Positions 43,664 through 64,000 are shown, counted from the stretch's first letter. The stretch: 64,000 nucleotides of DNA from Rhodocyclaceae bacterium (GCA_016702335.1 JADJEF010000020.1:1538032-1602031); one strand, 5' to 3'. A program made the numbers and translations. Notes: a model not told the origin generated them from the letters alone.

Positions 43664-43710
43664 GCCCGGACTGTCATCCTGCGGCAAGACAGCCGGTTCA
43701 TACTACGGGC

Positions 43711-45627: not shown

Positions 45628-45708
45628 AGCCGTACGCGCCGCTCTTCGGTGGCCGGCGCATGCACTGCCCCTGACTATCCACGCTAGCCACCCCTCCGGG
45701 AGAACCTC

Positions 45709-46152: not shown

Positions 46153-46189
46153 ACCAAACCGGCGCTGATCCGTCGCCGGTGCGTGACAG

Positions 46190-46216
46190 CGCCGTGTCAC
46201 CAGCGCCGACTTGGGG
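46190..46216 (+). repeat. dispersed element copy 9
   Basis: CGCCGTgtcaCCAGCGCCGACTTGGGG. Intergenic, between the convergent csp-like and fbpA genes. Confidence 0.85.
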
Positions 46217-46263
46217 TAGCCGCCTGAACCTCGCCGGCGAGGCGGCACCCGCAGGCCGCGTGC

Positions 46264-47277: not shown

Positions 47278-47295
47278 GGGCGGGTTCCTTGGGTG

Positions 47296-47380
47296 GAGTG
47301 GAGAACGTACGTATCTTAATGAGAACGATTCTCATTCTACTTGACTTATATCAATCCACAAATGAGAATGATTCCTAATA
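47296..47380. promoter_or_regulatory. divergent Fur-regulated promoter with two Fur boxes
   Basis: AATGAGAACGATTCTCATT is a perfect 8-bp inverted repeat matching the Fur-box consensus. A second box is AATGAGAATGATTCCTAAT. Both sit between fbpA and hemP. Confidence 0.65.
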
Positions 47381-47595
47381 ATTCATCCCATTCACTGATC
47401 AACTTACCTGTCATGACCCCTCTCAACACGTCCCTCGCCCCGCCTCGCCCCGACCAGCCCGTGCCCGTGCACCGCATCAACGGCATGGACAGCCGCACCC
47501 TGTTTGCCGGGGCCAAAGAAGTTCTGATCCTGCATCACGGCGAGCCCTACCGCCTTCGCGAAACGCGGCAGGGCAAGCTGATCCTGACCAAGTAA
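47341..47595 (+). CDS. hemP: hemin uptake protein HemP
   Basis: C-terminal LFAGAKEVLILHHGEPYRLRETRQGKLILTK is the HemP signature. The true start is probably Met 47413 (60 aa), because 47341 overlaps a Fur box. Confidence 0.65.
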   Translation: MTYINPQMRMIPNNSSHSLINLPVMTPLNTSLAPPRPDQPVPVHRINGMDSRTLFAGAKEVLILHHGEPYRLRETRQGKLILTK

Positions 47596-47605
47596 AGGAG
47601 CCACC

Positions 47606-47821
47606 ATGTACGTGTGCATCTGCAATGCGGTACGCGAAGCCGACATCCACGCTGCCGTCGCTGGCGGTGGCTGCCGGAAAGTGCGAGACTTGCGCACGCA
47701 GTTGGGGGTAGCGGCCGAGTGTGGCCGCTGCGCCGGCTGCGCGCGCGAGGTGCTGCATCAGGCTCTGCAAACCCGTGCCTCGAACAACCCCGCGGTCCGC
47801 GCCTGTTGCGCCGCCGCCTGA
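47606..47821 (+). CDS. bfd: bacterioferritin-associated ferredoxin
   Basis: RBS aaaggag. MYVCICNAV...CGRCAGC [2Fe-2S]-binding BFD motif. Confidence 0.85.
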
Positions 47822-47834
47822 ACGGAGATTTGCC

Positions 47835-48311
47835 ATGAAAGGCGACGCCCAGGTCATCAAACTGCTCAACAAGCAACTGGTCAACGAGCTGACCGCGATC
47901 AACCAGTATTTCCTGCATGCGCGCATGTACAAGAACTGGGGCTTTACCGCCCTGGGCAAGCATGAGTACGAGGAGTCGATCGAGGAAATGCATCACGCCG
48001 ACAAGCTCATCGAGCGCGTGCTGTTCCTCGAAGGCTTGCCCAATCTGCAAGCGCTGAACAAGCTGATCATCGGCGAGAACGTGCCCGAATGCATCGCCGG
48101 CGATCTGAAGCTGGAAAAGGGCGCGCACAAGGATCTGGTCGAGGCCATCGCCCACTGCGAGAGCGTGCGCGACTACGTCTCGCGTGATCTGCTGCAGGAG
48201 ATTCTCGACGATACCGAAGAGCACATCGACTACCTCGAAACGCAACTGGAGCTGATCGAGAAGGTCGGCGTGCAGAACTATCTGCAGACGCAGATGGGCT
48301 CGCCCTCGTAG
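47835..48311 (+). CDS. bfr: bacterioferritin
   Basis: [37 protein letters not shown]; a classic Bfr of 158 aa. Confidence 0.9.
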
Positions 48312-48421
48312 CTTTGCAACACTGACGGCCGGGCAGTCTCCCGGTCTTTTCCAGCCAGCCAGCCGGCGCGCATGATGCGCCTGGCAAGCCAGCCAACAAT
48401 CATCTTGTTTGGAGGTTTGCC

Positions 48422-48976
48422 ATGCGCATCGCGCGCCTTGCTGTAGTTGCCGCATCACTCACCACCCTGACCACCCTGCCAGCGCTGGCGCTGGAATACC
48501 CCATCGGCGCGCCGAAGGAGGTCAATGGTCTCGAAGTCGCTGCCGTTTATCTGCAGCCCATCGACATGGAACCGCCCGGCCACATGCGCAAGGCCTCGGA
48601 GTCGGACATCCACCTCGAAGCCGACATCAAGGCCTTGGGCAAGAACCCCAACGGCATTCCCGAAGGTGCCTGGGCGCCTTACCTGCACGTCACCTTCGAG
48701 CTGACCAAGGCCGGTGACAAGGACGTGATCAAGGGCGACATGATGCCCATGGTCGCCAGCGACGGTCCGCACTATGGCGACAACGTCAAGCTCAAGGGCC
48801 CGGGCAAGTACAAGGTTAAATTCACCGTCTACCCGCCGGGCGATGCCGGCAACCCGCATGGTGCGCACTTCGGCCGCCACACCGACCGCGCCACCGGTGT
48901 CGGTGCCTGGTTCAAGCCCTTCAGCGTGGAGTGGGACTTCACCTACGCCGGCATCGGCAAGAAGGGCGGCTACTGA
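48422..48976 (+). CDS. ftrA: periplasmic iron/copper-binding protein P19 (FtrA/Tp34 family)
   Basis: Signal peptide. Conserved P19 segments (MMPMVASDGPHYGDNVKL, KVKFTVYPPG). Confidence 0.8.
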   Translation: MRIARLAVVAASLTTLTTLPALALEYPIGAPKEVNGLEVAAVYLQPIDMEPPGHMRKASESDIHLEADIKALGKNPNGIPEGAWAPYLHVTFELTKAGDKDVIKGDMMPMVASDGPHYGDNVKLKGPGKYKVKFTVYPPGDAGNPHGAHFGRHTDRATGVGAWFKPFSVEWDFTYAGIGKKGGY

Positions 48977-49347
48977 TGCCGCCTCGTGGTGGCCGCTGGC
49001 TCGCGCACGGCAGCTTTGTCGCCGCACTCTGGATCGGGCTTGGCCTCGCCGTGCCCGAGCCGGTGCAGGCGCAGGCCAAAGCGCTGCCGGCATTTACCGC
49101 CACCGTGACCGATGGCGTGTTCGCCCCGGCCCGCCTCGTCGTGCCGGCCGGCGAGCGGGTCAAGATCATCCTCAAGAACGAAGGCCCCGGCCCGCTCGAA
49201 TTCGAGAACGACGACATGCGCATCGAAAAGATTGTCGCTGCCGGAGCGGGTTCGTTTGTGGTGCTGCCACCGCTCAAGCCGGGGACGTATGAGTTCATTG
49301 ATGAATTCAACATCGCGACCGGCGTGCTGGTGATCGAGGCGCAGTAA
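48976..49347 (+). CDS. periplasmic cupredoxin-like protein (FtrB-like)
   Basis: Start overlaps the upstream stop (ATGA). Signal peptide. Cupredoxin-like beta-strand pattern. Confidence 0.6.
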   Translation: MPPRGGRWLAHGSFVAALWIGLGLAVPEPVQAQAKALPAFTATVTDGVFAPARLVVPAGERVKIILKNEGPGPLEFENDDMRIEKIVAAGAGSFVVLPPLKPGTYEFIDEFNIATGVLVIEAQ

Positions 49348-49352
49348 TCGTT

Positions 49353-50735
49353 GTGCACACCATCGTATTCCATCGCCAACCGCCGTTACGCCAGCGCCGA
49401 CTTGCGGTACTTGCGCGCATTGGCGACTGGCTGGCCACGCACCGCCGCGTCATCCTCGGCGTGCAGTGGGTGGTGGTCGCGTGCTATCTGCTGCTCGTCG
49501 CGCTGCCCGCCTTCCTGCCCCTGCCGGCGGGCGACGCACACCTGTTTGGCTCGGCACTGTGGCATGAACGTGTGGTGCTCTTGGCGCAATACCTGTTCTG
49601 GGGCGTGTGGTGGCCCTTCGTCATTCTGTCCATCATGCTCATGGGCCGCGTCTGGTGCGGCGTGCTCTGCCCCGAGGGCGCGCTCTCGGAATGGGCCAGC
49701 CGGCACGGGCGCGGCGGCGCGATTCCCAAATGGCTGCGCTGGGGCGGCTGGCCCTTTGTTGCCTTCGTACTGACCACGGTTTATGGGCAGCTGGTCAGCG
49801 TGTATGACTACGCGCAGGCGGCACTGCTGATCCTAGGCGGCTCGACCGTTGCCGCGATGATCGTGGGCTATTTCTACGGCCAGGGCAAGCGCGTCTGGTG
49901 CCGCTACCTGTGCCCGGTCACCGGCGTGTTTGCGTTGCTGGCGCGCTTAGCGCCCATCCACTTTCGCGTCGACCGCGCCGCGTGGGCCGCCTACCCGCAG
50001 CGCACGCCAGCGGTCGATTGCGCACCGCTGCTGCCCGTGAGCCACCTGAATGGCATGGCGCAGTGCCACGCCTGCGGCCGCTGCAGCGGGCATCGTGATG
50101 CGATGACGCTGGCGGCGCGTTCGCCCAATGCCGAAATCCTTGCCGGCGATGCGCCAACGCACTGGGACATGGCGCTGCTCTGCGTCGGCATTTTCGGCGT
50201 GGCGCTGGGCGCGTTTACCTGGAGCCTGGCGCCGACGTTTGTGGCGCTGAAACAGACAACGGCCGCATGGCTGATCGAGCGCGACATCCTCTGGCCGCTG
50301 GCCGAGAGCCCGGCCTGGTGGCTGCTCACGGCCTACCCGCAGGCCAACGACGTATTCACCCTGCTCGACGGCGCAGCCATCCTCGGCTGGATCGCAGCGA
50401 CCGCACTGGTGCTCGGCGGCGGCATCTGGCTGACGCTGCACGGCGCGGCGCGGCTGGCCCAGGTCGATGCCCGTCGCCTGGCCCTGGGTCTCGTGCCACT
50501 GGCCGGCGCCAGCCTGTTTCTCGGCCTCTCAATGATGACGGTGAATCACCTGCGCGCCGAGGGCGTGCTGCTGCCCTGGCTTGAGGTGGTGCGAGTGGGC
50601 CTGCTGGGCGGTACGGCGCTGTGGTCGGCCGCGCTGCTCTGGCGACTGGCGGCGGATCGCCTCGCCGGCTTTCTAACCGCCCTGCTGCCGGTGGTCGCGG
50701 TGTGCAGCGTCTGGACGCTAACGCTGCTCAAATGA
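49353..50735 (+). CDS. membrane-bound polyferredoxin (FtrD/NapH-like)
   Basis: TM helices plus CxxC..CP pairs (WCGVLCPEG, WCRYLCPVTG, CHACGRC). The dispersed repeat lies in the N-terminal cytoplasmic region. Confidence 0.7.
   Translation: MHTIVFHRQPPLRQRRLAVLARIGDWLATHRRVILGVQWVVVACYLLLVALPAFLPLPAGDAHLFGSALWHERVVLLAQYLFWGVWWPFVILSIMLMGRVWCGVLCPEGALSEWASRHGRGGAIPKWLRWGGWPFVAFVLTTVYGQLVSVYDYAQAALLILGGSTVAAMIVGYFYGQGKRVWCRYLCPVTGVFALLARLAPIHFRVDRAAWAAYPQRTPAVDCAPLLPVSHLNGMAQCHACGRCSGHRDAMTLAARSPNAEILAGDAPTHWDMALLCVGIFGVALGAFTWSLAPTFVALKQTTAAWLIERDILWPLAESPAWWLLTAYPQANDVFTLLDGAAILGWIAATALVLGGGIWLTLHGAARLAQVDARRLALGLVPLAGASLFLGLSMMTVNHLRAEGVLLPWLEVVRVGLLGGTALWSAALLWRLAADRLAGFLTALLPVVAVCSVWTLTLLK
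49381..49407 (+). repeat. dispersed element copy 10
   Basis: CGCCGTtacgCCAGCGCCGACTTGCGG. In the 5' end of the polyferredoxin gene, encoding PPLRQRRLAVL in a different frame. Confidence 0.85.
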
Positions 50736-51430
50736 ACGTGCGCACAACCACCTTGATCGTGTCCTCGCCGACACAGATTCTGAGCTCTGCCTGTCACTGC
50801 GCACTGGTCGCCGGCGTGCATCTGGCGGTGCTGGCATGGCTGTGGCAGGCGGTGCCGACCGCTGTGCGCGCGCCGCTGGTGTTGCAGATGCGCATGATCG
50901 CAGCAGGGGTAGCACCAACGGTCACAGCGCCACTATCGGCCGTGTCCCCACTCCAGTCGCGCCGGCAAAACGCCGTCCTGCCAGCGCCGACTTCCCGACC
51001 CATCGTTGCACCCGTCGCGCCACCCATAGCATCACCCACGGCCACATCGCCCGTCGCCGTTGCCGATGCGCCCGCGCCAACCATCGCCGCCACTGAGAGC
51101 TTCGCCACGCCCACCGAGAGCACCCCCGCGAGCGCCCCGGTCGACCCCACGCCGCCACGCTTTGACGTCGGCACGCTCGACAACCCCACGCCCGCCTACC
51201 CCGCGCTCTCGCGCCGGCTGGGCGAGCAGGGGCAGGTGCTGCTGCAGGTCGAGGTCGGCACCGACGGCCGCGCGCACAAAGTGGCGGTGAAACGCAGCAG
51301 CGGCTACCCGCGTCTGGACCACGCGGCGCTGGAAACCGTGCGCCGCTGGACCTTTATCCCCGCCCGCCTGAGCCGCCTCGCCATCGCGGCCAGCGTGCTG
51401 GTGCCAATTCGTTTCTCGCTGAAAGAGTGA
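50732..51430 (+). CDS. tonB: TonB energy-transducer
   Basis: ATG overlaps the upstream stop (ATGA). N-terminal TM. Pro/Ala-rich spacer. C-terminal TonB domain (GQVLLQVEVGTDGRAHKVAVKRSSGYPRLDHAALETVRRWTFIPA). The GTG start at 50621 is rejected. Confidence 0.75.
   Translation: MNVRTTTLIVSSPTQILSSACHCALVAGVHLAVLAWLWQAVPTAVRAPLVLQMRMIAAGVAPTVTAPLSAVSPLQSRRQNAVLPAPTSRPIVAPVAPPIASPTATSPVAVADAPAPTIAATESFATPTESTPASAPVDPTPPRFDVGTLDNPTPAYPALSRRLGEQGQVLLQVEVGTDGRAHKVAVKRSSGYPRLDHAALETVRRWTFIPARLSRLAIAASVLVPIRFSLKE
50971..50997 (+). repeat. dispersed element copy 11 (CTTCCCGACCC sub-variant)
   Basis: CGCCGTcctgCCAGCGCCGACTTCCCGACC. In the TonB proline-rich spacer (AVLPAPTSRP). Confidence 0.85.
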
Positions 51431-51431
51431 T

Positions 51432-52154
51432 GTGATGGACTCCGCTGCAAACCCCATGGGCCTCGCCCACTTCATTGCCCACGCCGACGCCGTGGCGCGC
51501 ACCCTGCTGCTCATCCTGCTGGTGATGTCCATTGGCACCTGGTCGCTCATTGTCGGCAAGGGGCTCAAGCTGTGGCGCGCGCACCGCGCTGCCGGCGATT
51601 TCCTGCGCGATTTCTGGGCCGCGCCCAGCCTCGATGCCGTGGCGCAGCGCATTACCGAGAACGGCGTCACCGACGCCTTCTCGCACCTCGTGCATCACGG
51701 CTTTACGGCTGTGGCGCAGCATCGCGCCGGGCGCGACGGCGAACAGCCGCGCGGCCTGATCGACGCCGGCACGCCCGACGAGTTCCTCACCCGCGCACTC
51801 AAGCGCGCCATCGCGCAGGACAAGGCGCGCCTCGATGCTGGCCTCACCTTTCTCGCCACCGTCGCGTCGAGTGCGCCCTTCGTCGGTTTGTTTGGCACGG
51901 TCTGGGGCATCTACCACGCGCTGATCGCCATCGGCGCCAGCGGCCAGGGCACGCTGGACAAGGTCGCCGGCCCGGTCGGTGAAGCGCTGATCATGACCGC
52001 CATGGGTCTGGCGGTCGCCATTCCCGCCGCCATGGCCTACAACGCCTTCGCCCGTGCCCAGCGCAACACGCTCGCCGAGCTCAATTCGTTCGCCCACGAC
52101 GTGTTCACCTTTCTTGCCACCGGGCTCAAGCAAGCGCCGGTAGCGCGCGTCTGA
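51432..52154 (+). CDS. exbB: ExbB (MotA/TolQ/ExbB proton channel)
   Basis: Three TM helices. Conserved ExbB C-terminal helix (PFVGLFGTVWGI...IMTAMGLAVAIPA). Confidence 0.85.
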   Translation: MMDSAANPMGLAHFIAHADAVARTLLLILLVMSIGTWSLIVGKGLKLWRAHRAAGDFLRDFWAAPSLDAVAQRITENGVTDAFSHLVHHGFTAVAQHRAGRDGEQPRGLIDAGTPDEFLTRALKRAIAQDKARLDAGLTFLATVASSAPFVGLFGTVWGIYHALIAIGASGQGTLDKVAGPVGEALIMTAMGLAVAIPAAMAYNAFARAQRNTLAELNSFAHDVFTFLATGLKQAPVARV

Positions 52155-52166
52155 GCGGCCAACACC

Positions 52167-52586
52167 ATGAGCTTCGCCACCCTCGACCCCGACGATACCG
52201 CCAGCGATCTGGCCGAGATCAACATGGTGCCGCTGATCGACGTGATGCTGGTGCTGCTGGTGATCTTCATCGTCGCCGCACCGCTGCTCCAGCATGCCGT
52301 GCCGCTCGATCTGCCACGCGCCGCCAGCCAGCCGCAGAGCGCGCCGGCCGAGCACATCAAGCTCGCCATCGACCGCGCCGGGCACATCTACTGGAATGGC
52401 ACGCTCACCCCGCTGGCGCAGATCGAGCAACGCCTGACCGACACCGGTACGCGCGCCCCGCACACCGAGTTGCACCTGTCAGCGGACAGCGCCACCGCCT
52501 ACGAACGCGTCGCCCAGCTGCTCGCCGCCAGCAGTCGCGCCGGGCTGACGCGGGTGGGGTTTGTCACCGATCCGAGGGCGAAATGA
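52167..52586 (+). CDS. exbD: ExbD
   Basis: EINMVPLIDVMLVLLVIFIV motif. 139 aa. Confidence 0.85.
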   Translation: MSFATLDPDDTASDLAEINMVPLIDVMLVLLVIFIVAAPLLQHAVPLDLPRAASQPQSAPAEHIKLAIDRAGHIYWNGTLTPLAQIEQRLTDTGTRAPHTELHLSADSATAYERVAQLLAASSRAGLTRVGFVTDPRAK

Positions 52587-52594
52587 ACCGGTAC

Positions 52595-52834
52595 TTACTG
52601 CCGTTCGTCACCGAGGTCGGGCGTCACATCGGGGGCGCGATCCAGCACAGCGAGAAAATCACTGCGCCGGCCTTGCGCCGCCTCGGCGCGCAGGTAGTCC
52701 AGCGTCATTACGCTGGCCATTTTTTCGGCGGCGGCACTGGCAATGAACTGATTCACCGACACGCCGTCGCGCGCCGCCAGTTCCTTGATGCGCAGATGCA
52801 CCGAATCGGGCAGTCGTATGGTCAGGGCAGTCAT
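52595..52834 (-). CDS. small DNA-binding (RHH/Arc-like) putative antitoxin, paralog of 13958..14191
   Basis: 79 aa. Paralogy noted above. 4-bp overlap with the upstream PIN gene. Confidence 0.6.
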   Translation of the reverse strand: MTALTIRLPDSVHLRIKELAARDGVSVNQFIASAAAEKMASVMTLDYLRAEAAQGRRSDFLAVLDRAPDVTPDLGDERQ

Positions 52835-53256
52835 GGCAGGGTCTCCAGATGACGAAGGAAATTACCGGGCGTCATGGCGACCACACCCAGCTCGGAGGCA
52901 CGCGCAAAGTCCTTGACGTTGTGCGTGATGATGAATTCGCAACTCGCCGCCACGGCGCACTCCAGCACCATGTCGTCGTCCGGGTCGCGCAGGAAGGGAC
53001 GCCACAGGTAGTAGATATCCTGCAAGTGCGCAATCGAGGCGAGATAGCGCAGAAAGCCCTGAATCTGCTCAACGCCCACGCCGGGCGGTCGATGCTCAGG
53101 GCGCGTCAGCACCGCCTGCCACTCCATGTACAGGGCGACGGAAAGTGCCGGCGTGAATTGCGTCGACGGCAGGCCGCGCAGCAAGCCCTGACTGGCGCCC
53201 TGACGGGAACGCAGGGCGGCAACGAGTACCGAGGTATCAATAACGATGCGCATCAT
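52831..53256 (-). CDS. PIN-domain protein (putative toxin), paralog of 13519..13953
   Basis: MMRIVIDTSVLVAALRS...EFIITHNVKDF. Aligns with the first PIN gene along its whole length. Confidence 0.75.
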   Translation of the reverse strand: MMRIVIDTSVLVAALRSRQGASQGLLRGLPSTQFTPALSVALYMEWQAVLTRPEHRPPGVGVEQIQGFLRYLASIAHLQDIYYLWRPFLRDPDDDMVLECAVAASCEFIITHNVKDFARASELGVVAMTPGNFLRHLETLP

Positions 53257-53399
53257 GGTTACACCAATATACCCATCGAAGCACTATTACGCAACTCATG
53301 AATACCTGATTGCGTCGAATATCAACCCCTGCCAGCCAGCCCCCGCAGTCCTTTCTGCCGCCAGCCAGCCTTGAACACTTGCTCCCGGAAAGGAATGCC

Positions 53400-55619
53400 A
53401 TGTCCCGTTTTACCCGTTTCACCTCACGTCGCCAGCCGCTGGCGGCTGCCGTCGCCACGGCAATCGCCGTCCTGTCAGCGCCGACTTGGGCGCAGCAGTT
53501 GCTCCAGGAAACCGTCGTCTCCGGCTCGCGCATCGAGCAGGAAATCGACAGCGTGCCGGCCACGCTCACGGTCATCACTGACGAGACCATTGCCCGCGAA
53601 AACCCCACTGATCTCGACGACCTGCTCAAGCATGAGGCGGGCGTTTCGGTGCGCAGCCAGCCCAATCGTTCGTCGGGTGTGTTCCGCGCCGTCGGCCGCG
53701 CCGGCAACGAGGGCGTGAACATTCGCGGCCTCGAAGGTGACCAGGTGCGTCTGCAGGTCGATGGCGTCGCCCTGCCCATGACCTACAGCAGCGGCCCCTA
53801 CGCCGCCGGGCGCGGTGATGTGATCGACCCCGAGGGCTACAAACAGGTCGAGATCCTGCGCGGGGCGGCCTCGACCCAGTTCGGTTCCGACGGCCTCGCC
53901 GGGGCCGTGAGCTTTCGCACCAAGGACCCGGCCGACCTGCTGACGCTGGGCAAGGACGTGCAGGGCAACATAAAGTTGGCCTATGCCTCGGCCAATCGCG
54001 AATGGCAGTTCGCGCCCTCGGCCGCATTCAAGACCGACAGCGTGCAGGGCATGGTGCTGGCCAGCTACCGGCGCGGTCATGAGACCGAGACCATGGGCAC
54101 GAACAACGCGCACAGCGTCAATCGCACCAGCGCCAACCCCTCGGAGCGCGACGCCGATTACCTGCTGGCCAAGCTGGTCTGGTCGCCCTCGGCGGCGCAT
54201 CAGTTCAAGCTCACCGCCGAGTCGCTCAAGCGCGACAACGCCACCGATGTGTACACGTTCTTTGGCGACCCCTTCGCCGCCGCCACGCTCACCGACGTCG
54301 AGGTCGAAGAAAAGGTCACGCGCGAACTGGTCAAGCTCGACTACCGCTACGTGCCGCAGAACCTGTGGTTCGATCTGCTCGAACTCTCGCTCTATACGCA
54401 GGCATCGGAAAACCGCCAGCTCGGGCTGGAGCGCCGTTCGGCCAACCCCCTGCTGCGCACCCGCGATACCCGCTATGCCGAAGACACGCTGGGCGGCAGC
54501 CTGCTGCTGGAGAGCAATCTGCGCTTGGGCAGTACCGAGCACCGCGTGGTCGGCGGGCTGGATCTCGTGCGCAACGACGTGACCTCGCTCAAGGATGGCT
54601 ACAACAGCTCGGGCGCCGCCTTCGTGGCCAACAAGAGCTTTCCCGATACCGGGTACCGCACGCTCGGCGCTTTCCTTCAGGATGAAATCCGTCTCGGCCC
54701 GGTCAGCTTCACGCCGGGGGTGCGCTACGACGAATTCAAGCTCTCGCCCAAGGCCGACGCGCTGTATCGGGTGAACAACACCGTCGCCCCCGCCGCGCTC
54801 AAAGGCGATGAACTCTCGCCGCGTCTGGGCGCGATCTGGTCCGTGTCGCCCCTGCTTCAGCCCTACGCGCAGTACGCGCACGGCTTTCGCGCGACCAAAC
54901 CCAGCCAGGTCAATGGCGGTGTCACCAACCTGACCACGGTCACCGGTTCCGGCCCCTACACCTCGCAAGGCAACCCCGACCTGCTGCCCGAAACCAGCGA
55001 CACCGTCGAGCTCGGCCTGCGCGGGCGCGACGCTACCCGGCGTTACAGCGTGTCGGTGTTCAAGGGCAAGTACAAGGATTTCATTGCCTCCAATCAGCTG
55101 GTGGCGAGCAATGTGGACCTCGGGCTGGGGCCGCTGGTCGATGTCTTCCAGACCGTCAACCTCTCCCGCGTCACCCTGCAAGGTTTTGAAGCGCGCGGCG
55201 AATGGGCATTCGCCAAGGGCTGGCGCACCAGCCTCGCCTACGCCCACGTCAAGGGCGACTCGGATGACGGCAACACCAAAGCCCCGCTGGCCACCGTCGA
55301 CCCCGACAAGCTGGTGCTCGGACTGAGCTACGAGCAGGCCGGGCACTGGGGCGCATCCGCCACCGCGACGGCGGTCGAGCGCAAGCAGCGCAACCCGGAC
55401 CCGACCACCTACACCGCGCCGGGCTACCGACTGCTCGACCTCTCCGCGTGGTACGCGTTCAGCAAAGCCACGCGCCTCGCCACGACGCTCAACAATGTCT
55501 TCGACCGCAAATACGTCGAATGGGCCGACGTGCGCGACCTGGCGGCGACGAGCACCGTGCTCGACGCCTATACGCAGCCGGGGCGCAACTTCACCGTCAG
55601 CCTGACGCACAGCTTCTGA
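53400..55619 (+). CDS. TonB-dependent outer-membrane receptor (heme/metalloporphyrin-type candidate)
   Basis: RBS aaaggaa. Signal peptide incorporating the dispersed repeat (AIAVLSAPTWA/QQ). Plug domain. Ends ...SLTHSF. Confidence 0.85.
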   Translation: MSRFTRFTSRRQPLAAAVATAIAVLSAPTWAQQLLQETVVSGSRIEQEIDSVPATLTVITDETIARENPTDLDDLLKHEAGVSVRSQPNRSSGVFRAVGRAGNEGVNIRGLEGDQVRLQVDGVALPMTYSSGPYAAGRGDVIDPEGYKQVEILRGAASTQFGSDGLAGAVSFRTKDPADLLTLGKDVQGNIKLAYASANREWQFAPSAAFKTDSVQGMVLASYRRGHETETMGTNNAHSVNRTSANPSERDADYLLAKLVWSPSAAHQFKLTAESLKRDNATDVYTFFGDPFAAATLTDVEVEEKVTRELVKLDYRYVPQNLWFDLLELSLYTQASENRQLGLERRSANPLLRTRDTRYAEDTLGGSLLLESNLRLGSTEHRVVGGLDLVRNDVTSLKDGYNSSGAAFVANKSFPDTGYRTLGAFLQDEIRLGPVSFTPGVRYDEFKLSPKADALYRVNNTVAPAALKGDELSPRLGAIWSVSPLLQPYAQYAHGFRATKPSQVNGGVTNLTTVTGSGPYTSQGNPDLLPETSDTVELGLRGRDATRRYSVSVFKGKYKDFIASNQLVASNVDLGLGPLVDVFQTVNLSRVTLQGFEARGEWAFAKGWRTSLAYAHVKGDSDDGNTKAPLATVDPDKLVLGLSYEQAGHWGASATATAVERKQRNPDPTTYTAPGYRLLDLSAWYAFSKATRLATTLNNVFDRKYVEWADVRDLAATSTVLDAYTQPGRNFTVSLTHSF
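53465..53490 (+). repeat. dispersed element copy 12 (TCAGCGCC variant)
   Basis: CGCCGTcctgTCAGCGCCGACTTGGGC. Forms the signal-peptide h/c-region of the TonB-dependent receptor (AIAVLSAPTWA). Confidence 0.8.
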
Positions 55620-55620
55620 C

Positions 55621-58600
55621 ATGCGCGCCATCTTGCTGTTACTGCTGTGCGTGGCGAACTTAACCTGCCACGCCGCCCACCTGCTGGTCGTCACCACCGG
55701 CCCCGTCACCGCCGGCAAGTTCCGTGTGCTGGACGAGGCGGCGCGGGCGCATGGCCTTACCATCGAAGCGCGTTTTGTCGAGAAGCTCGACCGTCCCGTC
55801 AATGCCGACTTCTGGCGTGGGGCGGACGCCGTGCTGTTCGACACCCCGCGCGAACACATGGAAGAAGCCGTGCGCGCCAAGGTCGCCCCGGCGCTGCCGG
55901 CCCTGGCGCAGGCCAAGCTGCCGGTGCTCTGGGCACCGGCCAGCGCGCCGCGCGCAAGCCACCTGCCGGACGAGCTGGCGCGCCGGCTGCACGCCCATTA
56001 CGTCAATGGCGGGCGCGACAACAACGCCGGCTTTGTCGCCACGCTGGCGGCGCACCTGCAAGGCAAACCGTGGCAGGCGTTGCCCGGCATCAAACCGCCC
56101 ATCGTCTTTCCGGCCACGGCCATCTACCACCCGCGCGCACCGGCGACGGTGTTTTCCGACACGGCGGCGTATCGCGCGTGGCATGGCCGACGCGCTACGC
56201 AACCCGTCGTCGCCATCGCCTTCCACCAGCAGGCCATCGCCGCCGGCCAGACCGGTCTGATCGACGACCTGATCGCCCGCATCGAGGCGGCCGGGGCGCT
56301 GCCGCTGGCCTTTTACAGCCCGGTGATGGACAACACGGCCATCACGGCCTTGCTCAAACCCAAGGGCGAGCGCGTCGCCGACGTCCTGATCAACACCCAG
56401 ATCGTGCTCAACCCGGAGGGGCGACGCAGCGAATTCGCCGCGCTCGGCATCCCGGTGCTTCAGGCATTGCACTACAAGAAAGGCGACGAGGCGGCCTGGC
56501 GTGCCGACACGGTCGGCATCACGCTCATGGACGTGCCCTTCTATGTCTCGCAGCCCGAATACGCCGGCATCCACGACATTCAGGTGGCCTCGGTCACCGA
56601 CCCGGCGACCGAGCTGGTGACGCCCATTGCCGATCAGGCGGCGAGCGTGGTCGGCAAGGCGGTAAATCTGGCGCGCCTCGCCCACCTGCCCAATCGCGAA
56701 AAACGCGTGGCGGTGATGTTCTGGAACTACCCCTCGGGCGAAAAAAACCTCGGCGCGTCATTCATGAACCTGCCCGAGAGCCTCGCGCATACCTTGCGTG
56801 AAATGAAAGCTGTCGGCTATCGCGTGGAAACCCCCGAGCCGCGCCAGCTCACCCTGCTCTTGCAGCGTCTGCTGGTGCCCTTCTACCGCCCGGCACTACA
56901 AGTCCGTGACGAGATGGAAACGCTGCTGCGCGAAGGGCTCGCCGAGGCGATACCGATGAGCGCGTACAAGCGCTGGTTCGACGCCCTGCCCGAGGATGTG
57001 CAACAGCGCTGGCTGCAGGCCATGGGCTACCCGGAAAAATCCGGCTTCGCCATCCGTCGCGACGGCGTGCAGTACTTCGTCGTGCCGCGCCTGAAACTGG
57101 GCAATGTGACCATCCTGCCGCAGCCGCCGCGCGGCGAGCCGACGGCCGGCAGCCTCGCCGCCACCGAAAAGGCGCTCTACCACTCCAGCAGCGCCGCGCC
57201 CACGCACTACTACATGGCCGCCTACCTGTGGCTGCGCCAGCAGATGCAGCTCGACGCGCTGGTGCATTTCGGCACCCACGGCACGCAGGAATGGCTGCCC
57301 GGCAAGGAGCGCGGGCTGGCACTCACCGACTACCCGCTCATGGCGCTAGGCGACGTGCCGGTGATCTACCCCTACATCATCGACAACATCGGCGAGGCGG
57401 TGCAGACCAAGCGGCGCGGGCGCGCCGTAAATATCAGCCACCAGACCGCACCGTTCACGCCCGCCGGCCTGCACGATGCCTTCACCAAGCTGCACGACGA
57501 ACTGCACGCCTGGCTGGCGCAGGACGCCGGCCCGGTACGCGACCAGATTCGCGACGAGCTGATCGCGCGCGTGCTGCGCGAAAACCTGCACCGTGACATG
57601 GGCTGGGACGAAGCGCGCATGACGCGCGAATTCCGCCCCTTCATCGACGCCCTGCACGACCACCTGCACGAGCTGGCGCAGGCCGCGCAGCCTGCCGGGC
57701 TGCACACCTTCGGCCGTGGCGCGGGCGAGCATGCACGCTTGGCCACGCTGCTCATGATGCTGGGCAACGAGTTCTGGGAGGCAGCCTACAAGCACAGCGG
57801 CGGCGACCCGGCCGAGGCGGACGAGGCGATCATCGCCAACTACGACCAGCTCGCCGGCACCACGCCCTATCGCCTGCTCAAGACGCAACTGGCGCAAGCC
57901 GACGACACGGCGCTGCCCGAGCCTTTGCGCACGCACATGGCGCAGGCGCGGCGCTGGCATAGCGACCTTGACGCGCGTTCGGAAACACAGGCGCTGCTGG
58001 CCGCGCTGGCCGGGCAGTACATCGCCACCAGCTACGGCGGCGACCCGATCAAGAACCCGGACGCCCTGCCCACCGGGCGCAACGTCTATGGCTTCGACCC
58101 TTCGCGCGTGCCCACCAAGGCCGCATGGGAAGCGGGCAAGGCGGCGCTGGAGCAGCTGGTCGCGGCGCACAAGGCCAGGAGCGGTAGCGCACCGAAAAAG
58201 CTTGCCTTCACGCTCTGGTCAGTCGAGACCATGCGCCATCAGGGCATGCTCGAAGCGCAGGCGCTGTGGGCGCTCGGTGTCGAGCCGGTGTGGGATGCCG
58301 GCGGGCGCGTCACCGATGTCAGGCTGGTGTCGCGCAAGGCGCTGGGCCGGGCGCGCATCGACGTGGTGCTCTCGGCCACGGGCCTCTACCGCGACCACTT
58401 TCCCAATGCCATGAAGCAGCTGGCCAAAGCCGCGCAGCTGGCCGCACAAGCACCGGAGGCAGTGAAAGAAACGGATAACCCGGTGACGCAGAATGCCCGC
58501 GCACTAGTCGCGCAACTGACCACCCAGGGCTGGAGCGGCGCCGCCGCGCAGAAGGCCGCCGCCACGCGCATCTACTCGGCCGCGAGCGGCAACTACGGCT

Positions 58601-59694
58601 CGGGGCTGGACGATGCCGCGACCGCCACCGATACCTGGCAGAGCAAGGCCGAAGGTGACAAAAAACTGGCCGAGCTGTACCTGAAAAAGATGCAGTTCGC
58701 CTTCGGCCCCGATGAAGCCGACTGGGGCAAGAGCGGCGGCGATCTGGCACGCGAGGCGGGCGTGTCGGAAGAGCAGCTGGAAAAAGCCGCAGAGCAGGGC
58801 AGCCTCGCCGTCAATCTTTACGCCGCCACGCTCAAGGGCACCGAGGCGGCGGTGCTGGCACGCACCTCCAACCTCTACGGCATGCTCACCACCGACGACC
58901 CCTTCCAGTACCTGGGCGGCATTGCCACGGCGGTACGGCATCTCGACGGGCAGGCACCCGGCCTCTACATCGCCAACCAGCGCGGCAGCGGGCCGGGGCG
59001 CATCGAGGAGGCCGGTGCCTTTCTGGCCAAGGAACTGGCCACGCGCCAGTTCCACCCCGGCTACATCAAGCACCTGATGGCCGAGGGCTACGCCGGCACG
59101 CTGGAACTGCTCGACGGCATGAACAACTTCGCCGGCTGGACGTCAGTTGCGCGCGAGATCGTGCGCGATGACCAGTGGCAACAGTTCGCCGAGGTCTACG
59201 TGCAGGACAAGCACAATCTCGGGCTGGACAAATGGTTCGAGGCGCAGAACCCGCACGCGCAGGCGCAGATGGTCGAGCGCATGCTCGAAGCGGCGCGCCA
59301 CGGCTACTGGCAGGCCGATCCGGCGACCGTTGAAACACTGAAGGCACGCTACCGTGACCTCGCCGTGCGCTATGACGTGCGTACCGATAACGTCGCCCTG
59401 CAGAAGTTCGCCGGGCTGCCCGGGTACGGGCTGGGTCGCTCGGTGGCACCGCCGCCCGAGGCGGTAGCGCAGCCGCCGGCGGCCGCCTCACGACCGGCGC
59501 TGCGGCAAACCGCCGTACCACCAGCGCCGACTTCCCGACCCGCCGCCGAACCAACACCCCTGATCACCGGCCAGAAGTTGCAGAAGGTCGCGGACGCGGT
59601 TGTCGAAGCAACGCCATGGCTGGGAATGCTCGCGCTGATTCTGATTGCGCTGACACCCCTGGGCGGCGCACTGCGGCAATGGCGGCGCGCATGA
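55621..59694 (+). CDS. CobN/Mg-chelatase-family large subunit homolog (HmuS-like putative metalloporphyrin chelatase/dechelatase)
   Basis: 1357 aa. CobN-family core (HFGTHGTQEWLPGKERGL). Signal-like N-terminus. Sits between a TonB-dependent receptor and a ChaN-like gene. Confidence 0.8.
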   Translation: MRAILLLLLCVANLTCHAAHLLVVTTGPVTAGKFRVLDEAARAHGLTIEARFVEKLDRPVNADFWRGADAVLFDTPREHMEEAVRAKVAPALPALAQAKLPVLWAPASAPRASHLPDELARRLHAHYVNGGRDNNAGFVATLAAHLQGKPWQALPGIKPPIVFPATAIYHPRAPATVFSDTAAYRAWHGRRATQPVVAIAFHQQAIAAGQTGLIDDLIARIEAAGALPLAFYSPVMDNTAITALLKPKGERVADVLINTQIVLNPEGRRSEFAALGIPVLQALHYKKGDEAAWRADTVGITLMDVPFYVSQPEYAGIHDIQVASVTDPATELVTPIADQAASVVGKAVNLARLAHLPNREKRVAVMFWNYPSGEKNLGASFMNLPESLAHTLREMKAVGYRVETPEPRQLTLLLQRLLVPFYRPALQVRDEMETLLREGLAEAIPMSAYKRWFDALPEDVQQRWLQAMGYPEKSGFAIRRDGVQYFVVPRLKLGNVTILPQPPRGEPTAGSLAATEKALYHSSSAAPTHYYMAAYLWLRQQMQLDALVHFGTHGTQEWLPGKERGLALTDYPLMALGDVPVIYPYIIDNIGEAVQTKRRGRAVNISHQTAPFTPAGLHDAFTKLHDELHAWLAQDAGPVRDQIRDELIARVLRENLHRDMGWDEARMTREFRPFIDALHDHLHELAQAAQPAGLHTFGRGAGEHARLATLLMMLGNEFWEAAYKHSGGDPAEADEAIIANYDQLAGTTPYRLLKTQLAQADDTALPEPLRTHMAQARRWHSDLDARSETQALLAALAGQYIATSYGGDPIKNPDALPTGRNVYGFDPSRVPTKAAWEAGKAALEQLVAAHKARSGSAPKKLAFTLWSVETMRHQGMLEAQALWALGVEPVWDAGGRVTDVRLVSRKALGRARIDVVLSATGLYRDHFPNAMKQLAKAAQLAAQAPEAVKETDNPVTQNARALVAQLTTQGWSGAAAQKAAATRIYSAASGNYGSGLDDAATATDTWQSKAEGDKKLAELYLKKMQFAFGPDEADWGKSGGDLAREAGVSEEQLEKAAEQGSLAVNLYAATLKGTEAAVLARTSNLYGMLTTDDPFQYLGGIATAVRHLDGQAPGLYIANQRGSGPGRIEEAGAFLAKELATRQFHPGYIKHLMAEGYAGTLELLDGMNNFAGWTSVAREIVRDDQWQQFAEVYVQDKHNLGLDKWFEAQNPHAQAQMVERMLEAARHGYWQADPATVETLKARYRDLAVRYDVRTDNVALQKFAGLPGYGLGRSVAPPPEAVAQPPAAASRPALRQTAVPPAPTSRPAAEPTPLITGQKLQKVADAVVEATPWLGMLALILIALTPLGGALRQWRRA
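59511..59537 (+). repeat. dispersed element copy 13 (CTTCCCGACCC sub-variant, as copy 11)
   Basis: CGCCGTaccaCCAGCGCCGACTTCCCGACC. Near the 3' end of the CobN-like gene (TAVPPAPTSRP). Confidence 0.85.
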
Positions 59695-60572
59695 GAGCCG
59701 GCCTTATCACTCTGCTGCTGATGGCCAGTCTCGGCACGCAGGCGCACCCGCTGGATGGGCAATGGTGGGACGTCAAGGCGCAGCGTTTCAGCGACGAGAA
59801 GAGCGTGCAGGCGCGTGCGACGGCGGCGCGCTACGTGCTGCTTGGCGAAAAGCACGACAGCGACATTCACCACGCCGAGCAGCTGGCCATGCTTCAGGCA
59901 CTGGCCAGCCACGGCTGGCGCGGTGCCCTGGCCATGGAGCAGTTCGACCAGATAAACCAAGCGGCCCTCACCGCCGCACAACAGACCGGCGCGCGCGATG
60001 CCGACACACTCGCCGACGCTGGCCAGCTCAATCGCAAAGGCTGGCGCTGGCCAATGTACAAGGACCTGATCGCCTTCGCTGCCGCGCAAGGCTGGCCGCT
60101 GCGGGCGGCCAACCTGTCGCGTGCCGAAGGGCGCGCCATTGTGCTCGGCGAAACCACGCCCACGCTACCGCCGGCCGACGCGGCACAGACGGCCGCGCTG
60201 GAAGTCGACGTGATTCAGGGCCATTGCGGCGAGGCGCCCGAGCCGGCACGCCTCACCGCCATCGTGCTCGCCCAGCGCGCCCGCGATGCACGCATGGCCG
60301 AGGCGCTGCGCGCGGTCGGCACGCCCGTGGTGCTGATCGCCGGCGCCGGCCATGTGCGCACCGATCGCGCCGTGCCGCGTTACCTGACGCCGCCGGACTC
60401 GGCGCTGGCCATTGCCTATGTCGAAATCGACGCTGGAAATACCACACCTGCACAGTACGACCTCGCCGGCTTCGATCTTGTCCGCTTCACCCCGGCCACG
60501 GTGCGCCCCGACCCCTGCGCCGTGCCGCTCACCGGTTCCGTTTCACCCTCATCAACCAAGGAAAAACCATGA
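59691..60572 (+). CDS. ChaN-family heme-binding lipoprotein-like protein
   Basis: ATGA overlap with the CobN-like gene. ChaN/DUF399-like sequence (YVLLGEKHDSDIHH...VVLIAGAGHV). Confidence 0.65.
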   Translation: MRAGLITLLLMASLGTQAHPLDGQWWDVKAQRFSDEKSVQARATAARYVLLGEKHDSDIHHAEQLAMLQALASHGWRGALAMEQFDQINQAALTAAQQTGARDADTLADAGQLNRKGWRWPMYKDLIAFAAAQGWPLRAANLSRAEGRAIVLGETTPTLPPADAAQTAALEVDVIQGHCGEAPEPARLTAIVLAQRARDARMAEALRAVGTPVVLIAGAGHVRTDRAVPRYLTPPDSALAIAYVEIDAGNTTPAQYDLAGFDLVRFTPATVRPDPCAVPLTGSVSPSSTKEKP

Positions 60573-61057
60573 ACGACAGCACCCTGATTGAACTTTTGAT
60601 GTACCAGATCGGCCAGCTTTTTTTGCTGCCCGTGCTCGGCCTCGTCGGCCTGCTCTTTGTCTATGCACTCTGGGTGCTCGGCCGCTTTGCCGTGCAGGCC
60701 TGGCAGCGCCGGCAGGCCAGTGCCGCCGGATTTCCCTTGCGCGCCTACCTGCAGCGCCGCCCGCAGGCCAGCGCCGACGAGCTCGACCTCTATGCACACA
60801 AGCTGCTCGAACCCGAGCGCCTGGCCAGCCGCATCGCGCCCATGCTCGGGCTGGTGGGCACCATGATCCCCATGGGCCCGGCGCTCAAGTCGCTGGCCGA
60901 TGGCAATCTTGCCAAAGTGTCAGGGAATCTCACCGTCGCCTTCTCGGCCGTCATCCTCGCCCTGCTCGCCGCCAGCATCACCTACTGGGTGTCAAACGTG
61001 CGCAAGCGCTGGCTGGCCGAAGAGCTGGTGGCGCTGCAACAGGGGGCAGCGGCATGA
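60569..61057 (+). CDS. MotA/TolQ/ExbB-family proton-channel protein (short form)
   Basis: ATGA overlap with the ChaN gene. Three TM helices. The upstream in-frame extension from 59762 is rejected. Confidence 0.7.
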   Translation: MNDSTLIELLMYQIGQLFLLPVLGLVGLLFVYALWVLGRFAVQAWQRRQASAAGFPLRAYLQRRPQASADELDLYAHKLLEPERLASRIAPMLGLVGTMIPMGPALKSLADGNLAKVSGNLTVAFSAVILALLAASITYWVSNVRKRWLAEELVALQQGAAA

Positions 61058-61368
61058 GCCTGAAAATCCTGCATGAAGCGGAGAACGACGATCCGATTCT
61101 CTCGGTGGTGAACATCATCGACATCTTCCTCGTCATCATCGCCGCGCTGCTCATCACTGTCGCGCAGAACCCCATGCTCAATGCCTTCAGCCAACGCGAC
61201 GTAACGGTAATCACCGACGCCGGCAAACCGACGATGGAAATGATGGTCAAGAAAGGCGAAAAGATCGAACGCTACAAATCCCGCGGCCAGATCGGTCAGG
61301 GCGAAGGCGCGAAAGCCGGCACCGCGTATCGCATGAAGGACGGAGGGATTGTTTATGTGCCGGAGTGA
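61054..61368 (+). CDS. DUF2149-like small membrane protein (ExbD-analog partner)
   Basis: Single TM (IIDIFLVIIAALLI). 4-bp overlap with the ExbB-like gene. Typical companion in CobN-associated clusters. Confidence 0.55.
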   Translation: MSLKILHEAENDDPILSVVNIIDIFLVIIAALLITVAQNPMLNAFSQRDVTVITDAGKPTMEMMVKKGEKIERYKSRGQIGQGEGAKAGTAYRMKDGGIVYVPE

Positions 61369-61447
61369 GGAAGCGCGCCAAGCGCAAAATTCCAGACGAT
61401 TTCGCCTCTTCCTGCGCGTGACCGGTGCTTTGATGCAGATAGTCAGC

Positions 61448-62389
61448 TCAATGGTGGGCCTTGAGCGCCCGCTCCAGAAACTGGAAGACTTTTTCAAGAT
61501 TCTGCGGTGTCTCGAACTGCGGGCCACCATGACCCGCTCCTTCGATGATTTCCAGGCTAACCCTTTCGGGCCCACCGATGCGACGAATCGCCTCGGCAAA
61601 CTGGATCGACTGCTGCGTGGGCACCAACGGGTCCTTTGAACCATGTTGAATGAAGAAGGGCGGTGAGTTCGGGGTCAGATGCGAGGCGGGGTTGGCCGCC
61701 TTCACAAGATCCGGAACCTTGTTGATGGCCTGACCAAGGTACCGTGATTCCGGCGAGCCTTGTGCAGAGTGATCTGGCCGCCCGATTCCCGATGCGGCAA
61801 ATTGTTCATCCATAGTCAGAAAGTCGATCGGACCAAACCAGTCGATGACCGCCTGCACGCGATCATTTTCGTCGCGACCCGCCGCACCTGCCCAGGCGGC
61901 CAGATTGCCACCCGCCGATCCGCCCCACGTCGCAAAGCGCTTTGTATCCAGCTGATACCGGCCTGCATTGATCCTTAGAAAGCGAATGGCAGCCTGAACA
62001 TCATCGGTCGCCGCAGGAAAAATTGCTTCGCCACTCATGCGGTAATTGATCGACACGACCGCATAGCCGCGCTTGATCCCAGTCAGGGGGGCATTGAGCT
62101 GCCCGTCGGCCTTATCCCCCATCATGAAGCCGCCACCATGAATGGCCACAATCACGGGAAAGGGCCCCGTGCCAGTGTCGGGAAGATAGATATCCAGTTT
62201 TTGCGCGGGCGATTGCCGCCCATAGGGCAGATCGATCCACTTTCGTTGCACCTGGCTCGTATCGGCCGCTTTCGGCATCATCCCTCCGGGTGGCGGCCCC
62301 GGCATTTCGGCCAATGCCGTTTGTTGGATGCCGACGCACGCAGCAATCAGAAGAAATACGCTTCGGGAGGTGGAATCAGATTTTTTCAT
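61448..62389 (-). CDS. secreted alpha/beta-hydrolase (carboxylesterase/lipase-like)
   Basis: Signal peptide. HGGGF oxyanion motif. GGSAGG nucleophile elbow. Confidence 0.8.
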   Translation of the reverse strand: MKKSDSTSRSVFLLIAACVGIQQTALAEMPGPPPGGMMPKAADTSQVQRKWIDLPYGRQSPAQKLDIYLPDTGTGPFPVIVAIHGGGFMMGDKADGQLNAPLTGIKRGYAVVSINYRMSGEAIFPAATDDVQAAIRFLRINAGRYQLDTKRFATWGGSAGGNLAAWAGAAGRDENDRVQAVIDWFGPIDFLTMDEQFAASGIGRPDHSAQGSPESRYLGQAINKVPDLVKAANPASHLTPNSPPFFIQHGSKDPLVPTQQSIQFAEAIRRIGGPERVSLEIIEGAGHGGPQFETPQNLEKVFQFLERALKAHH

Positions 62390-62635
62390 GGGGTCCTTTC
62401 GTCTGGCGATGGCGGCTTCAAGATGGCAACACTCTCTCGGTTAAGCCAACTCCGTCAGCCCGCCTCGAGCGTACATGCGCAATCAGATCAAAGTCAAACA
62501 AGACAGGTAGGCGCAGGGCTATTGTCACCTGATGTGGCCACGCTATGACGCGTATCGCAAAAATCAATTGGGCGCTGTGTGCGTGGCTGCCTAGTATCCG
62601 GTCAAGCCACAACACGCCGTTCAACCCCTGCCTAG

Positions 62636-64000
<1,365 letters not shown>

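Follow-up and report, generated by a model that had tools for sequence, protein, structure and literature searches.

A cluster of five genes at positions 53400-61368 of a 64,000-nt stretch of DNA from a Rhodocyclaceae bacterium (GCA_016702335.1 JADJEF010000020.1:1538032-1602031; hereafter, the window) encodes a TonB-dependent receptor, a large CobN-like protein, a ChaN-family protein, a short MotA/TolQ/ExbB-like protein and a DUF2149 protein. The cluster is interpreted here as a system that extracts iron from imported heme in the periplasm without requiring oxygen, and it would constitute a proteobacterial variant of the Hmu (HmuR-S-U-V)/BtuS systems. This interpretation is considered somewhat better than an even bet (about 0.55). 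The evidence for it comprises the gene content and coupling of the cluster, the family membership of its products, the homology of two of them to HmuU and HmuV, the conservation of a core of three genes and the link of the cluster to Fur boxes and iron genes. The general kind of system is known from the BtuS class of CobN-like proteins, associated with "metalloporphyrin salvage" (Rodionov et al. 2003, as cited in PMC6460266), from HmuS (2025) and from HmuS of Porphyromonas gingivalis (2026). A Fur-associated, ChaN-bearing proteobacterial variant, lacking HmuY and HmuT and carrying a CobN-type domain-V motif, was not found described in the literature searched.

Organisation and conservation of the cluster

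All five genes lie on the plus strand and the Pfam assignments of all five products exceed the curated cut-offs (Table 1). The stop codon of the receptor gene is separated from the ATG of the CobN-like gene by 1 nt and the remaining three junctions are ATGA overlaps; therefore, the five genes constitute one translationally coupled operon. The first-pass annotation of the window had proposed these genes at these places, their translational coupling and an export-type N-terminus for the 1357-residue CobN-family protein. The genes and their families were confirmed by Pfam, the coupling by the junctions, and the N-terminus by a hydropathy segment, to which a C-terminal transmembrane helix is now added.

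The scan scored over 400 homologs, with matches in at least 590 species genomes; 80 related loci (designated by L numbers) were fetched. Betaproteobacteria account for nearly all hosts of the homologs, the rest being a few Xanthomonadales and one Azospirillum. Most of the matched species belong to the Burkholderiales and Rhodocyclales and come from water, sludge and soil. The nearest relatives of the CobN-like protein are encoded in the metagenome contig L002 (93% identity) and in Rhodoferax (~65%). The CobN-like, ExbB-like and DUF2149 genes form the invariant core of the 80 loci: the ExbB-like and DUF2149 genes accompany the CobN-like gene in 61 and 64, respectively, of the 67 loci with enough sequence. 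Of six flagged exceptions, at least four have an explanation: two are short contigs, in L036 the pair lies beyond a second CobN-like gene, and L038 is an artefact of open reading frame (ORF) calling. The arrangement recurs in at least 80 genomes and is therefore no chance juxtaposition. A heme-family receptor gene precedes the core in most loci, and a second receptor is found in some. Bacterioferritin is adjacent in several related loci, and Alcaligenaceae loci such as L057 carry the trio alone, adjoining bacterioferritin.

Three further features of the related loci were recorded. A DUF2325 gene (~420 residues, coiled-coil N-terminus), which is absent from the window, lies immediately upstream of the receptor gene in L001 (6289-7560) and at least 13 other loci, often beside bacterioferritin. 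In the operon at L036 4881-21247, a single ExbB-like/DUF2149 pair is shared by three receptors and two CobN-like paralogs, which have 55% and 37% identity to the window protein. Genes for ribosomal protein S4 adjoin the modules of two Rhodocyclales/Betaproteobacteria loci (L021 12699-13403; L028 20431-21048).

The CobN-like protein

Only two segments of the CobN-like protein exceed a Kyte-Doolittle hydropathy of 1.6, namely the signal-peptide-like N-terminus and a C-terminal transmembrane helix (residues ~1331-1351), which follows a Pro/Ala-rich linker and is itself followed by the basic tail RQWRRA. The signal site of the orthologs is of the A-x-A type (consensus ...GAAQAA); the linker-helix-basic tail layout is common to the orthologs, the paralog clade described below and Bacteroides HmuS, with G1349, R1352 and R1355 invariant in the orthologs. 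These two segments predict a periplasmic body held in the inner membrane by a tail anchor.

The best match of the protein in the PDB is the heme dechelatase HmuS of Bacteroides thetaiotaomicron (9d26, 374 bits), followed narrowly by CobN (316) and ChlH (305). HmuS turns heme into protoporphyrin IX (PPIX) and Fe(II), and its HFG(T/A)HG motif has been defined with His-538 and Glu-577 in the central cleft (PMC12583661). The window protein carries VHFGTHG with H553 and E592, which are invariant in the 10-20 orthologs compared, and conserved equivalents of H538, E577, S1014, S1199 and D1208 of HmuS. An AlphaFold 2 (AF2) model of residues 20-1219 (pLDDT 70) confirmed the chelatase fold; Foldseek retrieved only HmuS, CobN and ChlH at E<=1e-39, with TM-scores of 0.42-0.48 that do not discriminate among them. 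The protein is thus regarded as a putative heme (metalloporphyrin) dechelatase.

With the class I chelatases CobN-CobST and ChlH-ChlID, which are cytoplasmic, biosynthetic and driven by ATP through AAA+ partners, the window protein has in common the PF02514 fold and the HFGTHG/Glu active-site elements. It differs from them in being exported and in being encoded with a proton-channel pair; a search of the operon, of 8 kb on each side and of the large window ORFs gave no AAA+ partner (CobS/CobT, ChlI/ChlD).

Automatic annotation would make the protein a genuine CobN of aerobic cobalamin biosynthesis, since it passes NCBIfam NF004644 "cobaltochelatase subunit CobN" (1311 bits; cut-off 1248), its database relatives are all named CobN and its domain-V motif matches DDxFQY of CobN. 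This assignment is hardly credible. The signal peptide and the C-terminal anchor indicate a location outside the cytoplasm, the score on TIGR02257 (cobalto_cobN) is 479 bits against a cut-off of 822, the cluster neighbours and the large window ORFs yielded no cobS, cobT or other cob gene, and the operon is shared with a heme-type receptor. A cobalamin riboswitch as the controlling element was also searched for and discarded: 44000-64000 has none (E<=1), nor do six loci have one ahead of the window-type module. NF004644 is itself not specific for biosynthetic CobN, because a periplasmic paralog linked to a riboswitch (L028) passes it with 1392 bits; the L036 paralog scores 1230. The window protein belongs to a separate clade that NF004644 labels "CobN". 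The first-pass annotation had named complementation of cobalamin biosynthesis as the alternative to metalloporphyrin processing, and that alternative finds no support in the riboswitch search or among the genes examined.

The receptor and the ChaN-family protein

The receptor has a signal peptide, a TonB-box-like ETVVSGSR and, according to Pfam, a plug and a barrel. Its scores place it in the heme/hemoglobin receptor family of NCBIfam, above the cut-offs of both TIGR01786 (417.8 bits; 323.75) and TIGR01785 (401.5 bits; 316.85), and far under those for ZnuD (42 bits vs 950), BtuB and siderophore receptors. All 45 receptors encoded directly upstream of orthologous CobN-like genes match TIGR01785 and TIGR01786 at E<=1e-90. 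The canonical TonB-ExbB-ExbD encoded just upstream is the likely energiser of the receptor; such a trio also precedes the module in L013, L046, L048 and L059.

The ChaN-family protein (PF04187, Tiki superfamily) has a signal of the signal peptidase I type and is periplasmic; it has no lipobox, whereas LAGC lipoboxes are present in the orthologs of L016, L023, L026 and L034. It matches Campylobacter jejuni ChaN (PDB 2g5g, E=6e-8), which was deposited as a "putative lipoprotein", the Pfam family name referring to heme-binding uptake. The two proteins share the GExHD, E and GH motifs, an association with iron uptake and an adjacent TonB-dependent receptor; their relationship is distant and their other partner genes differ. 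The motifs conserved in the window protein are LLGExHD..HH, E83, HCG, AQRxRD and AGxGHVR. Of 62 related loci, 18 have a ChaN gene, which takes three different places among them; it accompanies the window-type receptor in 11 of 13 loci as against 8 of 27 otherwise (Fisher p=0.002, phylogeny ignored). ChaN is regarded as an accessory, putative heme-binding or heme-handling protein.

The ExbB-like/DUF2149 pair

The ExbB-like protein has three predicted transmembrane helices and is 26% identical to Bacteroides HmuU (E=7e-21), while the DUF2149 protein is 39% identical to HmuV over its full length (E=3e-25); by these alignments the two are homologs of HmuU and HmuV. The motif P-LGLV-TMIPMGPAL...AFSAVILAL of helices 2 and 3 of the ExbB-like protein is conserved in 75 sequences. 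DUF2149 consists of a single N-terminal transmembrane helix with an invariant Asp (D23) and a small periplasmic domain; 74 sequences conserve its segment DPILSVVNxIDxFLV, which is similar to NMVPLIDVMLV of the window ExbD, although the ExbD Pfam model does not match DUF2149. In the AF2 prediction the helix alone is confident (mean pLDDT 56; periplasmic domain <50). Given this ExbD/TolR-like Asp helix, DUF2149 and the ExbB-like protein have the appearance of a minimal proton-driven stator.

It may be speculated, though we hold this to be rather doubtful, that the pair is not a spare energiser of the outer-membrane receptor but a dedicated proton-motive-force motor for the CobN-like protein, acting through its conserved C-terminal transmembrane helix and replacing, in a periplasm devoid of ATP, the AAA+ ATPases of the cytoplasmic class I chelatases. 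Such a role is suggested by the invariance of the trio, by its persistence with Fur-box-like sites in loci where no receptor gene was found directly upstream (L049, L051-L053, L057, L058, L060, L062) and by riboswitch-controlled operons that hold the trio and no receptor gene. It is also suggested by the canonical TonB-ExbB-ExbD already beside the window cluster, with no TonB-like gene in the module, and by the conservation of DUF2149, which far exceeds that of the chelatase, as expected of a motor part. Among the best 120 database relatives DUF2149 is 77-99% identical, much more conserved than its partner proteins; the CobN-like protein is 55-65% identical to the 120 relatives listed for it, save the two nearest. 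If the motor were real, the CobN-like, ExbB-like and DUF2149 proteins would form a general periplasmic metal-extraction machine, whose paralogs would be wired to iron (Fur, heme receptor), to cobalt/corrinoid (riboswitch and ZrgA; L018, L028, L073) and to zinc (Zur; Pseudomonas aeruginosa).

Regulation and the zinc/cobalt alternative

A cluster of Fur-box-like sites lies between an Fe3+-binding-protein gene and hemP (Table 1); no other iron-regulatory site can be recognised upstream of the five genes on the plus strand. The E. coli Fur consensus is matched at 14 of 19 positions at 47321-47339. The highest scores of the window on a position weight matrix (PWM) derived from the orthologous sites also fall here, with 26.2 bits at 47321 and 18-19 bits at 47358-47382. 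Of 43 related loci, 21 have a Fur-box match of 13/19 or better ahead of the receptor gene, compared with 6 of 400 random segments. In 8 of 11 loci where no receptor was found directly upstream, such matches precede the CobN-like gene (7 of 8 of the Alcaligenaceae/Burkholderiaceae type), and Fur-box-like sites precede TonB in L013, L046 and L048. The five-gene cluster would be transcribed from a Fur-controlled promoter ~6 kb upstream. Elsewhere in the window, a further Fur-box-like site (19 bits by the PWM) was seen in 23559-25297, just upstream of a gene for a 572-residue two-domain ATP-binding cassette (ABC) permease (BPD_transp_1), possibly a ferric-iron permease.

The proteobacterial operon closest in architecture for which expression data exist is PA1922-PA1925 of P. 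aeruginosa, a four-gene operon of unknown function encoding a TonB-dependent receptor, a CobN-like protein, an ExbB/D-like protein and DUF2149, which is induced more than 100-fold under zinc starvation through Zur (PMC4542158, PMC9431628). By its published annotation, it has the gene order of the window save for the inserted ChaN gene, which it lacks. These data also qualify the earlier statement that such clusters are largely untested in proteobacteria, which otherwise stands.

By analogy, the window cluster might acquire zinc or cobalt: a Zn/Co chelate or metallophore would enter through the receptor, and its metal would be stripped or transferred by the CobN-like protein. The analogy gains from the CobN-like DD motif of the window protein and from a second, paralogous CobN-like module (37-40% identical) that some of the related genomes carry behind cobalamin riboswitches (Table 1). 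The L028 paralog operon encodes a ZrgA-family protein (PF10986), an ExbB-like protein (233 residues), DUF2149 (100 residues) and a CobN-like protein (1331 residues), L073 has the same layout, and neither includes a receptor gene; ZrgA is a zinc-uptake family. An AT-rich Fur/Zur-like palindrome, TGAATGAGAATTATTGTTAATAATTCATTT, was seen upstream of the L028 riboswitch. With PA1922-PA1925 included, modules of this type are met under iron, cobalt/B12 and zinc control. For the window cluster itself the zinc/cobalt reading is nevertheless improbable, as its receptor is of the heme family, with the ZnuD score given above, and its neighbours are iron genes and Fur boxes. Zur control was rejected as a candidate: three Zur-box consensus forms gave nothing in the window, and one form run over 43 related upstream regions stayed at background level without enrichment. 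Thus, of the "metalloporphyrin salvage" proposed in the first-pass annotation, the link to heme and iron is upheld by the receptor family, the Fur boxes, the iron genes and the heme import genes found next to the module in Rhodoferax saidenbachensis, whereas "salvage" is not, the context being that of iron acquisition.

Proposed mechanism and its appraisal

Under iron starvation, iron would be taken from heme in the periplasm, the porphyrin being neither imported nor cleaved. Heme would be imported by the heme-family receptor, probably powered by the upstream TonB-ExbB-ExbD, and the periplasmic ChaN protein may bind it or hand it over. The CobN-like protein would bind the metalloporphyrin in its central cleft (H553/E592, DD motif) and remove Fe(II), leaving protoporphyrin IX, with the ExbB-like/DUF2149 pair possibly working with it as a minimal proton-driven stator. 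The released Fe(II) could enter the cell through general ferrous-iron systems, for example the P19/cupredoxin/polyferredoxin set encoded upstream.

The resemblance to the Hmu system of Bacteroidota, proposed earlier as a parallel to hmuYRSTUV, has been strengthened by the HmuU/HmuV homology and the PDB match to HmuS. Both systems encode, in the same order, a TonB-dependent receptor, a large CobN-superfamily protein, a MotA/ExbB-like protein and DUF2149; in both the CobN-superfamily protein has N- and C-terminal membrane segments and a periplasmic body, and both are linked to iron or heme limitation. The hemophore HmuY and the membrane protein HmuT are found in the Bacteroidota system only. The ChaN-family protein occupies the position of HmuT, but the idea that it is a distant HmuT relative was rejected (BLASTP E=26), HmuT being a polytopic membrane protein. 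On TIGR01785 the window receptor scores 402 bits, as a classical proteobacterial heme receptor, and HmuR 174. The window-type hosts are betaproteobacteria, mostly aerobic or facultative, that can make heme, whereas the Bacteroidota hosts are anaerobic heme auxotrophs. With the BtuS class, the window cluster shares a CobN homolog outside cob operons, an adjacent TonB-dependent receptor and a predicted action on imported metalloporphyrins; that class is heterogeneous and defined by context only, and cobalamin riboswitches control the related paralog clade and not the window clade. BtuS1 and BtuS2 of Bacteroides fragilis are predicted to be periplasmic and membrane-anchored and are required for growth on heme iron (PMC6460266).

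Several observations weigh against heme dechelation by this cluster. Nath et al. (PMC12583661) list as features of the HmuS family Met79/Gly80 and His254-Gly-Arg, which provide the axial ligands of the head/neck heme, Gln299, a Met-rich insertion of 120 residues and LSLDHxxEFMGG (His1209, Glu1212). In a Bacteroides hmu locus (L083) HmuS is split into two ORFs, from which the full-length sequence was rebuilt. MAFFT was used to align it to the window protein and to eight orthologs and two paralogs of the latter; all five features are absent from the window protein in this alignment. Met79 stands opposite Ala68, a variable position; His254-Gly-Arg opposite I261-V-L by phmmer (I261 being invariant) and opposite LLKP by MAFFT; and Q299 opposite F307. 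The Met-rich insertion (~120 residues, domain IV) is missing from the window protein, orthologs and paralogs alike, and LSLDHxxEFMGG is replaced by TTDDPFQYLGG, with H1209 and E1212 corresponding to D1093 and Q1096. The latter two residues are invariant in the window clade and are of the type found in Mycobacterium tuberculosis CobN (DDxFQY). The N-terminal 325 residues alone do not retrieve HmuS, the overall identity to HmuS is only 28%, and by sequence scores and Foldseek the protein appears almost equidistant from HmuS, CobN and ChlH. Lacking the HmuS-specific residues, it is therefore Hmu-like and not an HmuS.

The regulatory and experimental background adds to these objections. No Fur box is present in the 143 bp before the receptor gene (best PWM score 8.6 bits), nor was a convincing sigma-70 promoter found in this spacer, and a minus-strand toxin-antitoxin pair separates the receptor from the upstream genes; we therefore infer iron control of the window copy from the upstream site and the relatives. 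PA1922-PA1925 responds to zinc and not to iron, and the paralog clade under cobalamin riboswitches implies that the module is not intrinsically heme-specific. No periplasmic electron donor for heme reduction was identified, and btuS1 btuS2 mutants of B. fragilis still formed PPIX.

The persistence of PPIX in those mutants would also suit a heme chaperone or relay, a possibility raised in the P. gingivalis HmuS study (2026), in which the CobN-like and ChaN proteins only bind, pass on or buffer heme in the periplasm. Iron would then be freed elsewhere, for example by cytoplasmic HemS or heme oxygenase after ABC import, and the ExbB-like/DUF2149 pair would serve the receptor or another transporter. 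The missing second axial His of the HmuS type points the same way, as does Rhodoferax saidenbachensis, in which a complete heme import set (HemS/ChuX, a periplasmic binding protein, FecCD and an ABC ATPase) lies directly downstream of the module. We regard such a relay as unlikely: in most related loci no heme ABC importer or HemS is nearby, HmuS of Bacteroides thetaiotaomicron is catalytically active (PMC12583661), and the retention of ~1200 residues of chelatase body with the invariant HFGTHG, E592 and DD motif is hard to explain for a passive carrier.

The same active site, whose motif is nearer to that of the chelatases than to that of HmuS, might alternatively insert metal in the periplasm, re-metallating or detoxifying imported free porphyrins, and salvage or re-metallation roles of the homologs have been speculated upon by Nath et al. 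(PMC12583661). Such forward chelation is very improbable here, for the association with Fur boxes and iron-starvation genes speaks of gaining iron and not of spending it, and the receptor family is that of heme and hemoglobin. Iron extraction from heme thus remains the preferred interpretation of the cluster.

Genomic setting

The five-gene cluster forms the 3' end of a plus-strand iron island that begins at the Fur boxes; its order is an Fe(III)-binding-protein gene (on the minus strand), the Fur boxes, hemP, bfd, bacterioferritin (bfr), P19, cupredoxin, polyferredoxin and TonB-ExbB-ExbD. The genes for P19 (Fe2+ transport protein), cupredoxin and a 460-residue polyferredoxin (Fer4_5) are grouped at 48422-50735 (plus strand), directly before TonB-ExbB-ExbD, and no recognisable FTR1-type permease gene was seen with this group.

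The toxin-antitoxin pair lies antisense between ExbD and the receptor. Its PIN_3 toxin gene (52831-53256, minus strand) comes first and has an ATGA overlap with a 79-residue RHH-type gene (52595-52834). The pair fills the spot where related loci carry a Fur box or a direct ExbD-to-receptor junction, and the same insertion is present in the 93% identical contig L002. Directly after DUF2149 (60500-62500) the GC content falls from ~0.68 to ~0.58-0.61 and synteny with L002 (15751 onward) stops, the window continuing with a BD-FAE esterase gene (minus strand) and L002 with two peroxidase genes; the end of the operon is therefore a rearrangement boundary.

Elsewhere in the window, a second, larger TonB-dependent receptor (889 residues) is encoded at 40924-43593 (plus strand), upstream of a MASE11-GGDEF-EAL protein (43600-45627). 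At 25414-33112 (minus strand), a 1759-residue DUF3686/DUF7902/AAA protein adjoins a 740-residue Band-7/SPFH protein, an unusual giant ATPase pair unrelated to the cluster.

Table 1. Features of the window and of related loci (marked L), with coordinates, strand and supporting evidence
Feature	Coordinates	Strand	Evidence
TonB-dependent receptor	53400-55619	+	739 aa; Plug E=1e-20, barrel E=3e-52
CobN-like protein	55621-59694	+	1357 aa; PF02514 E=8e-290, profile positions 3-1089 of 1090
Signal-peptide-like N-terminus of CobN-like protein, MRAILLLLLCVANLTCHAA	55621-55677	+	hydropathy
C-terminal transmembrane helix of CobN-like protein with basic tail RQWRRA	59611-59694	+	hydropathy, alignment
ChaN-family protein	59691-60572	+	293 aa; PF04187 E=2e-36, 126 bits (cut-off 27.7)
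Short MotA/TolQ/ExbB-like protein	60569-61057	+	162 aa; PF01618 36.8 bits (cut-off 22.9)
DUF2149 protein	61054-61368	+	104 aa; PF09919 E=2e-28
Fur-box-like site cluster, between Fe3+-binding-protein gene (-) and hemP (+)	47315-47395		consensus, PWM
TonB	50621-51430	+	Pfam TonB_C E=5e-21
ExbB, canonical	51432-52154	+	Pfam MotA_ExbB E=1e-33
ExbD, canonical	52167-52586	+	Pfam ExbD E=5e-28
PIN/RHH toxin-antitoxin pair	52595-53256	-	antisense, between ExbD and receptor
Cobalamin riboswitch before paralog module	L018 21133-21355	+	86-105 bits (range of the three)
Cobalamin riboswitch before paralog module	L028 19784-20014	-	86-105 bits (range of the three)
Cobalamin riboswitch before paralog module	L073 19509-19738	-	86-105 bits (range of the three)

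Implications

Dechelation of heme, which leaves the porphyrin ring intact and proceeds without oxygen, was demonstrated only in 2025 and only in Bacteroidota. If the module described here dechelates heme, this chemistry would be widespread, occurring in bacteria that can make heme and often respire oxygen or nitrate. A family without the second heme site and the axial His1209 of HmuS would, in that case, reveal the features truly needed for dechelation. The cluster also offers a genetically tractable route to the roles of HmuU and HmuV (DUF2149) and to the zinc-induced PA1922-PA1925 operon. In addition, the uniform mis-annotation of these proteins as "cobaltochelatase subunit CobN" inflates the predicted capacity for B12 biosynthesis in metagenomes.

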